Shown here: positions 32,625 to 33,469 of the stretch, piece by piece
Numbering within the stretch: the stretch's first letter is position 1
Layout: the number at the start of each line of letters is the position of its first letter
Source of the DNA: Escherichia coli
GTDB lineage: Bacteria > Pseudomonadota > Gammaproteobacteria > Enterobacterales > Enterobacteriaceae
DNA: 64,000 nt
Strand: one strand, 5' to 3'
NCBI RefSeq assembly: GCF_041248615.1
Contig: NZ_CP158426.1
Position numbers and translations under genes: made by a program
The notes under the pieces: model-generated
What the model saw: only the letters and a program-made list of their open reading frames with translations
Told to the model about the DNA's origin: nothing
Databases searched by the model: none

Positions 32625-33469
32625 TGTACTTCTCCATGCCAGGGCGTCAGGCGGCGCTGTAACGCGCGCAGACCCAGTTCTAAAAGAAAGGCGATAATCG
32701 CAATCACCGCGATCCCCGCCAGCACCACGTCAGTCGCGAGAAATTCACCCGCTGACTGAACCATAAATCCTAAACCGCGCGTCGCGGCAATCAGCTCCGC
32801 CGCCACCAGCGTAGACCAGCCCACACCCAGACCAATACGTAATCCGGTGAGGATTTCCGGCAGCGCGCCGGGCAAAATGACATACCACAGCACCTGCGCA
32901 CGGCTGGCACCCAGAGACTGGGCGGCACGAATGCGAACCTGCTGCGCGCTTTTCACCCCCGCCAGCGCCGACATCGCCACCGGTGCAAAAATCGCTAAAT
33001 AGATCAGTAAGATCTTCGAGGTTTCGCCAATACCAAACCAGATCACCATCAGCGGCAAATAAGCCAGCGGCGGCACCGGACGATAAAGCTCGATTATCGG
33101 ATCCAGAATGCCGCGCACCGTCGGGCTTAGCCCCATGGCGATCCCGACCGGAATACCGATCAACACCGCCGCGAGTAGCGCCAGCAAAATGCGCGTCAGG
33201 CTGGCGGCCAGATGCTGCCACAGGGTGGCGTCCATAAATCCCTGCGGTCCGGCAATGGTGAGCAGTTTTGCCAGTACCTGTTGCGGCGGCGGCAAAAACA
33301 GCGGGCTAATCAGTTGCAGCGCCGCCACTGCCCACCATACAGTGAGTAAAACCGCTAACGTGCCAATGCTTAAGGTCACCTGACGCGAGAGCGGCCAGCG
33401 CCATTTCAGCCGATGCGAATGCAGTTTTTCATTAATGAGCACACTCAGAGAACGCCTCCCGTTGCTCAA
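32621..33469 (-). CDS. tauC: Taurine ABC transporter permease TauC
   Basis: 282-aa ORF as given by the track, which starts at a TTG (33467-33469); no in-frame ATG in the first ~79 codons, so the true start is uncertain; ABC permease with EAA-like loop. Confidence 0.88.

Follow-up and report, generated by a model that had tools for sequence, protein, structure and literature searches.

In the Escherichia coli chromosome analysed here, tauC has lost its ATG start codon through a one-base deletion at the tauB/tauC junction, and the same deletion carries the reading frame of tauB past its normal stop codon. We consider it likely that this is an ordinary derived mutation in a well-known operon, private to one strain, that lowers the output of TauC and involves no new mechanism of initiation. 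The window, by which we mean the whole 64,000-nt stretch of DNA that was analysed and to which all positions refer, is identical to positions 4035666-4099665 of NZ_LT599825.1, the chromosome of E. coli NRZ14408. From the titles of the papers cited for it, we take this strain to be a clinical isolate that is resistant to carbapenems and colistin (KPC-2/mcr-1).

The window encodes tauA, tauB, tauC and tauD, in this order, on the minus strand, and the genes are orthologous to those of K-12 based on the RefSeq annotation of the identical record. The features of the operon are as follows.

34224-35186, minus strand: tauA, substrate-binding protein, from the annotation of the identical record.
33432-34211, minus strand: tauB, four codons longer (…AFS-ECAH*), with its new stop codon TAA at 33434-33432.
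Between 33447 and 33448, minus strand: deletion site, where alignments show the A of the ancestral ATGA overlap to be absent (mRNA TTCTC^TGAGTG).
32621-33448, minus strand: tauC, ABC permease, as annotated (275 aa from CTG).
32621-32624, minus strand: ATGA overlap of tauC and tauD, intact, where the sequence reads …GTACAATGAGTGAA….
31773-32624, minus strand: tauD, taurine dioxygenase.

Gene order and the tauA-tauB spacer, which is 12 nt long and includes AAGGAGG, are as in K-12 tauABCD (van der Ploeg et al., 1996, via PMC6906117). The TauC proteins are also alike (275 aa from the equivalent position) and the tauC-tauD ATGA overlap is common to both. At the DNA level the locus shares 96-100% identity with more than 5,400 E. 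coli tau loci. All four ORFs are open and otherwise the same as those of isolate 362, the nearest relative. What sets the operon apart from that of K-12 is one base fewer at the tauB/tauC junction, a TauB of 259 rather than 255 aa, and a tauC without an ATG.

In K-12, tauB (890-1657 of locus L001) and tauC (1654-2481) share a 4-nt ATGA overlap, which ends the first gene and starts the second. Aligning the junction with other strains had been proposed as a check in the original prediction. When the junction is aligned with those of K-12, isolate 362 and six further strains, the others have ATGA, and in TTCTC[A]TGAGTG the bracketed A is absent from the window. The junction mRNA thus reads …GAGCAAC GGGAGG CGTTCT CTG AGT GTG CTC ATT AAT GAA…. 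Loss of the A turns the tauC ATG into CTG, the C coming from the preceding base, and the alignment places this CTG (33448-33446) exactly where the Met of K-12 had been expected. A substitution of A by C at the start codon was considered and is ruled out, as the alignment shows a deletion. The missing base precedes the second codon of tauC, which therefore keeps its reading frame. For tauB the consequence is different: the gene misses its TGA, reads TCT GAG TGT GCT CAT TAA, and ends 13 nt downstream of the old stop. It is thus 780 nt long, whereas the gene has 768 nt in K-12, in Z142-2 and in isolate 362. The overlap of the 5′ end of the tauC frame with the 3′ end of tauB, noted earlier from the window alone, extends to this TAA. 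The four C-terminal residues added to TauB (ECAH) are probably harmless, and the accession of this protein (WP_192459768.1) is absent from every other genome examined. The wild-type junction, CTCATGAG, forms a perfect 8-bp palindrome, one of whose two central bases is lost here (window 33444-33451, mRNA CTC^TGAG). The palindrome may be relevant to the origin of the deletion.

Among 5,426 complete E. coli genomes, a 39-mer across the deletion was found in one. Its wild-type counterpart, a 40-mer, is present in 5,128 records, in 4,043 of them as an exact match. Among the matches listed, 301 nt of the window align with 302 nt in nearly all other genomes. The junction variants that we sampled differ at synonymous tauB positions only, and all of them retain GGGAGG…ATGA. 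The nearest relative, isolate 362 (NZ_OW967178.1), has ATGA, and across the 3.6-kb tau region this base is the sole difference between the two strains. Scanning metagenome contigs for the deletion allele with a 24-mer returned no match. A strain-specific change of the start codon had been offered as one account of the missing ATG. Specific to the strain it is (1 of 5,426 E. coli genomes and 0 of 80 species), but no codon was substituted: the change is the loss of 1 nt, which lengthens tauB as well.

An allele seen once in 5,426 complete genomes could be an error of the deposited assembly, with the true genome carrying ATGA. In line with this, comparison with the nearest relative over 43.6 kb shows only one further indel, a G6-to-G5 homopolymer change, which is typical of sequencing error. 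However, the deletion site is not a homopolymer, and the exact 259-aa TauB, with the junction, occurs on 12 contigs of other public assemblies. All of them resequence one strain or clone and were compared as assemblies rather than reads. Two of them, GCA_014863425.1 and the Logan assembly of read set ERR5863490, match the window at 100% of positions over 6.8 kb, including two strain-private SNPs. In another (GCA_014863465.1) there are nanopore-type errors at CCWGG sites and homopolymers, and the deletion is still present. A literature search for JACXXT, JACXYO, ERR5863490 and LT599825 found no mention of them. Because independent assemblies of the same strain repeat the deletion, an assembly artefact is very unlikely and we regard the deletion as real.

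A second possibility is that nothing has been lost, and that a conserved non-ATG codon (TTG or CTG) is the usual start of tauC, which would be translated by coupling to tauB. PGAP does annotate CTG here, and in four other genera the overlap is GTGA, with GTG as the start. We examined the TauC loci of 80 Enterobacterales species representatives (Escherichia, Citrobacter, Klebsiella, Enterobacter, Lelliottia, Raoultella, Erwinia, Pantoea, Cedecea, Buttiauxella and others). The overlap is ATGA in 76 (at the expected position in 74 and at a small offset in two) and GTGA in four, namely Enterobacter sp. R1, Dryocola, Buttiauxella and Cedecea colo (loci L063, L067, L068 and L069). CTG was found in none of the 80, and all other E. 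coli genomes examined have ATG. Moreover, the TTG has no Shine-Dalgarno (SD) sequence. Orthologues with the same arrangement, which would have made it a normal feature, were thus sought and not seen among these species; the arrangement is derived and private, and we give practically no credence to a conserved non-ATG start. Given the four GTGA species, a canonical alternative start is tolerated at the tauC position in nature, whereas CTG was never seen there.

The ancestral junction is instead a textbook member of the pairs coupled through an NTGA (-4 nt) overlap (PMC12548453, PMC6728339). An NTGA overlap is present at every other E. coli junction examined and in the 80 species representatives. 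As in other such pairs, tauB and tauC lie side by side in one operon, in the same orientation, and encode subunits of a single ABC transporter, and the downstream SD sequence (GGGAGG, 33460-33455) lies inside the upstream gene. This SD reads GGGAGG or GNGAGG, 7 nt upstream of tauC, in nearly all of the 80 species (two read GGGAGA). The N-terminus of TauC that follows is poorly conserved across genera (SVLINEK, SVVINDK, SIVFSEK). In the window the defining motif is destroyed, the sequence being CTCTGAG and not CTCATGAG. The original prediction had taken the non-ATG start to suggest coupling to tauB. This reverses the logic: coupling would belong to the ancestral -4 nt ATGA and be degraded by the mutation.

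Four elements of the junction bear on where TauC translation could now begin.

33467-33469, minus strand: TTG that opens the tauC-frame ORF, inside tauB and upstream of the SD; its own upstream region reaches -0.7 kcal/mol.
33455-33460, minus strand: Shine-Dalgarno GGGAGG for tauC, within the Arg-Glu-Ala codons of tauB (anti-SD duplex -10.3 kcal/mol).
33446-33448, minus strand: CTG at the position of the ancestral tauC ATG, with GGGAGG 6 nt upstream; the start used by PGAP (275 aa).
33440-33442, minus strand: GTG, the ancestral Val3 codon, with GGGAGG 12 nt upstream, 8 nt before the new tauB stop; gives a 273-aa TauC.

GGGAGG is the only strong SD in the junction region. The tauC-frame ORF does open at the TTG (33469-33467, minus strand, 282 codons), as described in the original prediction, but the TTG itself was rejected as a start. 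It lies upstream of the sole, conserved SD, and its own upstream region gives -0.7 kcal/mol compared with -10.3 kcal/mol for GGGAGG. The absence of an early in-frame ATG also holds, the first being ORF codon 79 (33235-33233). A start at this Met79 was rejected as well: TauC would lack its first hydrophobic segment (residues ~31-56), and only a weak SD precedes the codon. The ATT at 33436-33434, which overlaps the new TAA, is near-cognate; its SD is poor (-5.4 kcal/mol at a spacing of 2 nt), and it is unlikely to play a part. Of the canonical start codons the GTG is the nearest, and the gene caller picked it on the Logan contig (273 aa, L012 3770-4591). The local RNA structure predicted for the junction differs between the alleles, but the energies are similar (-38.0 vs -38.6 kcal/mol) and do not separate them, and the SD is partly paired in both.

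Published measurements give an idea of how these codons might perform. In reporter assays, CUG initiated at 1-2% (or 0.1-3%) of the level of AUG, and GUG and UUG at 10-100% (bioRxiv 10.1101/063800), although such reporter-derived CUG efficiencies may not carry over to a re-initiation context. With regard to distance, coupling is best at -4 to +3 nt and drops faster with growing overlap than with growing spacing, with none at -25 nt in one study (2025 review, PMC12548453). Measured to the new tauB stop, a start at CTG has an overlap of 17 nt and a start at GTG one of 11 nt.

Based on these values, we propose that ribosomes recruited at the conserved GGGAGG would use the CUG, a weak codon 6 nt away, and/or the GUG, a canonical codon at a long spacing of 12 nt. 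Ribosomes that finish tauB at its new stop would have to step back by 8 nt to re-initiate at the GUG, or by 14 nt at the CUG. The tight -4 nt coupling would thus give way to an overlap of -11 or -17, and therefore TauC output should fall. Our best estimate is that TauC would be made at a low level from the GUG and/or the CUG, either full length or two residues shorter. The CUG could contribute more than expected, given its near-optimal 6-nt SD spacing. Because the tauC-tauD ATGA overlap is intact, the output of TauD may fall as well.

The loss could go further, with CUG and GUG together yielding no useful permease, so that the strain would be null for taurine transport and its tau operon would be decaying. 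The low efficiency of CUG noted above, the long 12-nt spacing of the GUG from the SD, and weaker coupling across the larger overlap all point in this direction. In addition, the cell can do without tau genes except when it draws its sulfur from taurine (PMC6906117), and tauD is frameshifted in other strains. Yet the four tau ORFs are open and otherwise as in the relative, GUG is a canonical start with a reported 10-100% of the efficiency of AUG, and small amounts of an ABC permease suffice. Effective silencing of tauC is thus possible, but we regard it as doubtful.

Two other readings place TauC nearer to its normal level. In the first, ribosomes would move back 8-14 nt after the displaced tauB stop, re-initiate at the GUG or even the CUG, and keep TauBC working; this we think unlikely. 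In the second, the CUG at the ancestral position would be the main start, with the strong SD and the ribosomes arriving from tauB compensating for the codon, so that TauC would be near normal and the phenotype neutral. The SD spacing of the CUG is optimal, it is the start chosen by PGAP, and re-initiation is reported to be tolerant of poor initiation signals (PMC12548453). Against this, Hecht et al. (bioRxiv 10.1101/063800) found that CUG initiates poorly in all the constructs they tested. Furthermore, CTG never occurs at this position in the 80 species or the other E. coli genomes examined, which argues for selection against it. A CUG that sustains near-normal TauC synthesis thus appears improbable to us, and reduced output from the GUG and/or the CUG is the outcome that we favour.

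Starts other than AUG, GUG or UUG have precedents in infC and pcnB, which begin with AUU (bioRxiv 10.1101/063800), and the annotated CTG of tauC resembles them in this respect. The infC and pcnB starts are experimentally confirmed; in contrast, the CTG is private, recent, and without conservation (1 of 5,426 E. coli genomes, none of the 80 other species) or any sign of a regulatory role. In the RefSeq record the tauB/tauC junction carries no frameshift flag. PGAP assigns the CTG-start tauC to WP_001589792.1, the accession that isolate 362 has for a TauC initiated at ATG. The loss of the start codon and the extension of tauB are therefore invisible at the level of protein accessions, and the wild-type accession on a CTG start hides a probable loss or reduction of function.

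We also examined the wider neighbourhood. Polarised with outgroups over 43.6 kb, NRZ14408 has seven private SNPs (window 23622, 30533, 31475, 38553, 42956, 47256 and 48611) and two one-base deletions (33447/8 and 39126), compared with two private SNPs in isolate 362. Five of the NRZ14408 SNPs are transitions, all of them G to A on the plus strand of the window. Those at 31475 and 38553 fall on the fourth base of CCAGG Dcm sites, a pattern expected from deamination of 5-methylcytosine. The counts are small (9 vs 2) and give a weak hint that NRZ14408 may carry an elevated mutation load or have been a mutator in the past. The deletion at 39126, in the intergenic region between yaiO and frmR, is the homopolymer change mentioned above. 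Either a true mutation or an error in sequencing could account for it, and it lies outside the independent assemblies compared.

Other genes of the region are also disrupted, in NRZ14408 or elsewhere. The autotransporter adhesin gene ehaB (25949-30233) is split into two pseudogene fragments by an IS3-family element (28600-29828), whereas isolate 362 and the ST2747 strains have an intact copy. An IS3-family insertion in ehaB is also present in several strains that are more distant; in the one examined, FDAARGOS_1276, it sits at another position. Genes flagged as frameshifted nearby include tauD and mhpT in strain W13-16 (L007, NZ_CP080235.1) and frmA in strain ST2747 (L009). Indels, be they real or products of sequencing, thus seem fairly frequent in the accessory catabolic genes around tau.

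In combination, the comparisons point to a single deletion in a 4-nt stop/start overlap that hits two genes at once and leaves both ORFs open. The allele would have a bearing on open questions about initiation mechanisms only if TauC is made efficiently. If efficient re-initiation did occur, coupling would tolerate the loss of NTGA and a near-cognate start in a native operon, and the strain would represent a natural experiment. With reduced output, which we favour, taurine uptake is probably impaired in NRZ14408, with a reduced or lost use of taurine as a sulfur source. TauABC is required for the use of taurine sulfur, and expression of the operon is limited to sulfur starvation (PMC6906117). 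Because the transporter is needed only for this substrate and the operon is on only under this condition, the phenotype would be conditional and minor.
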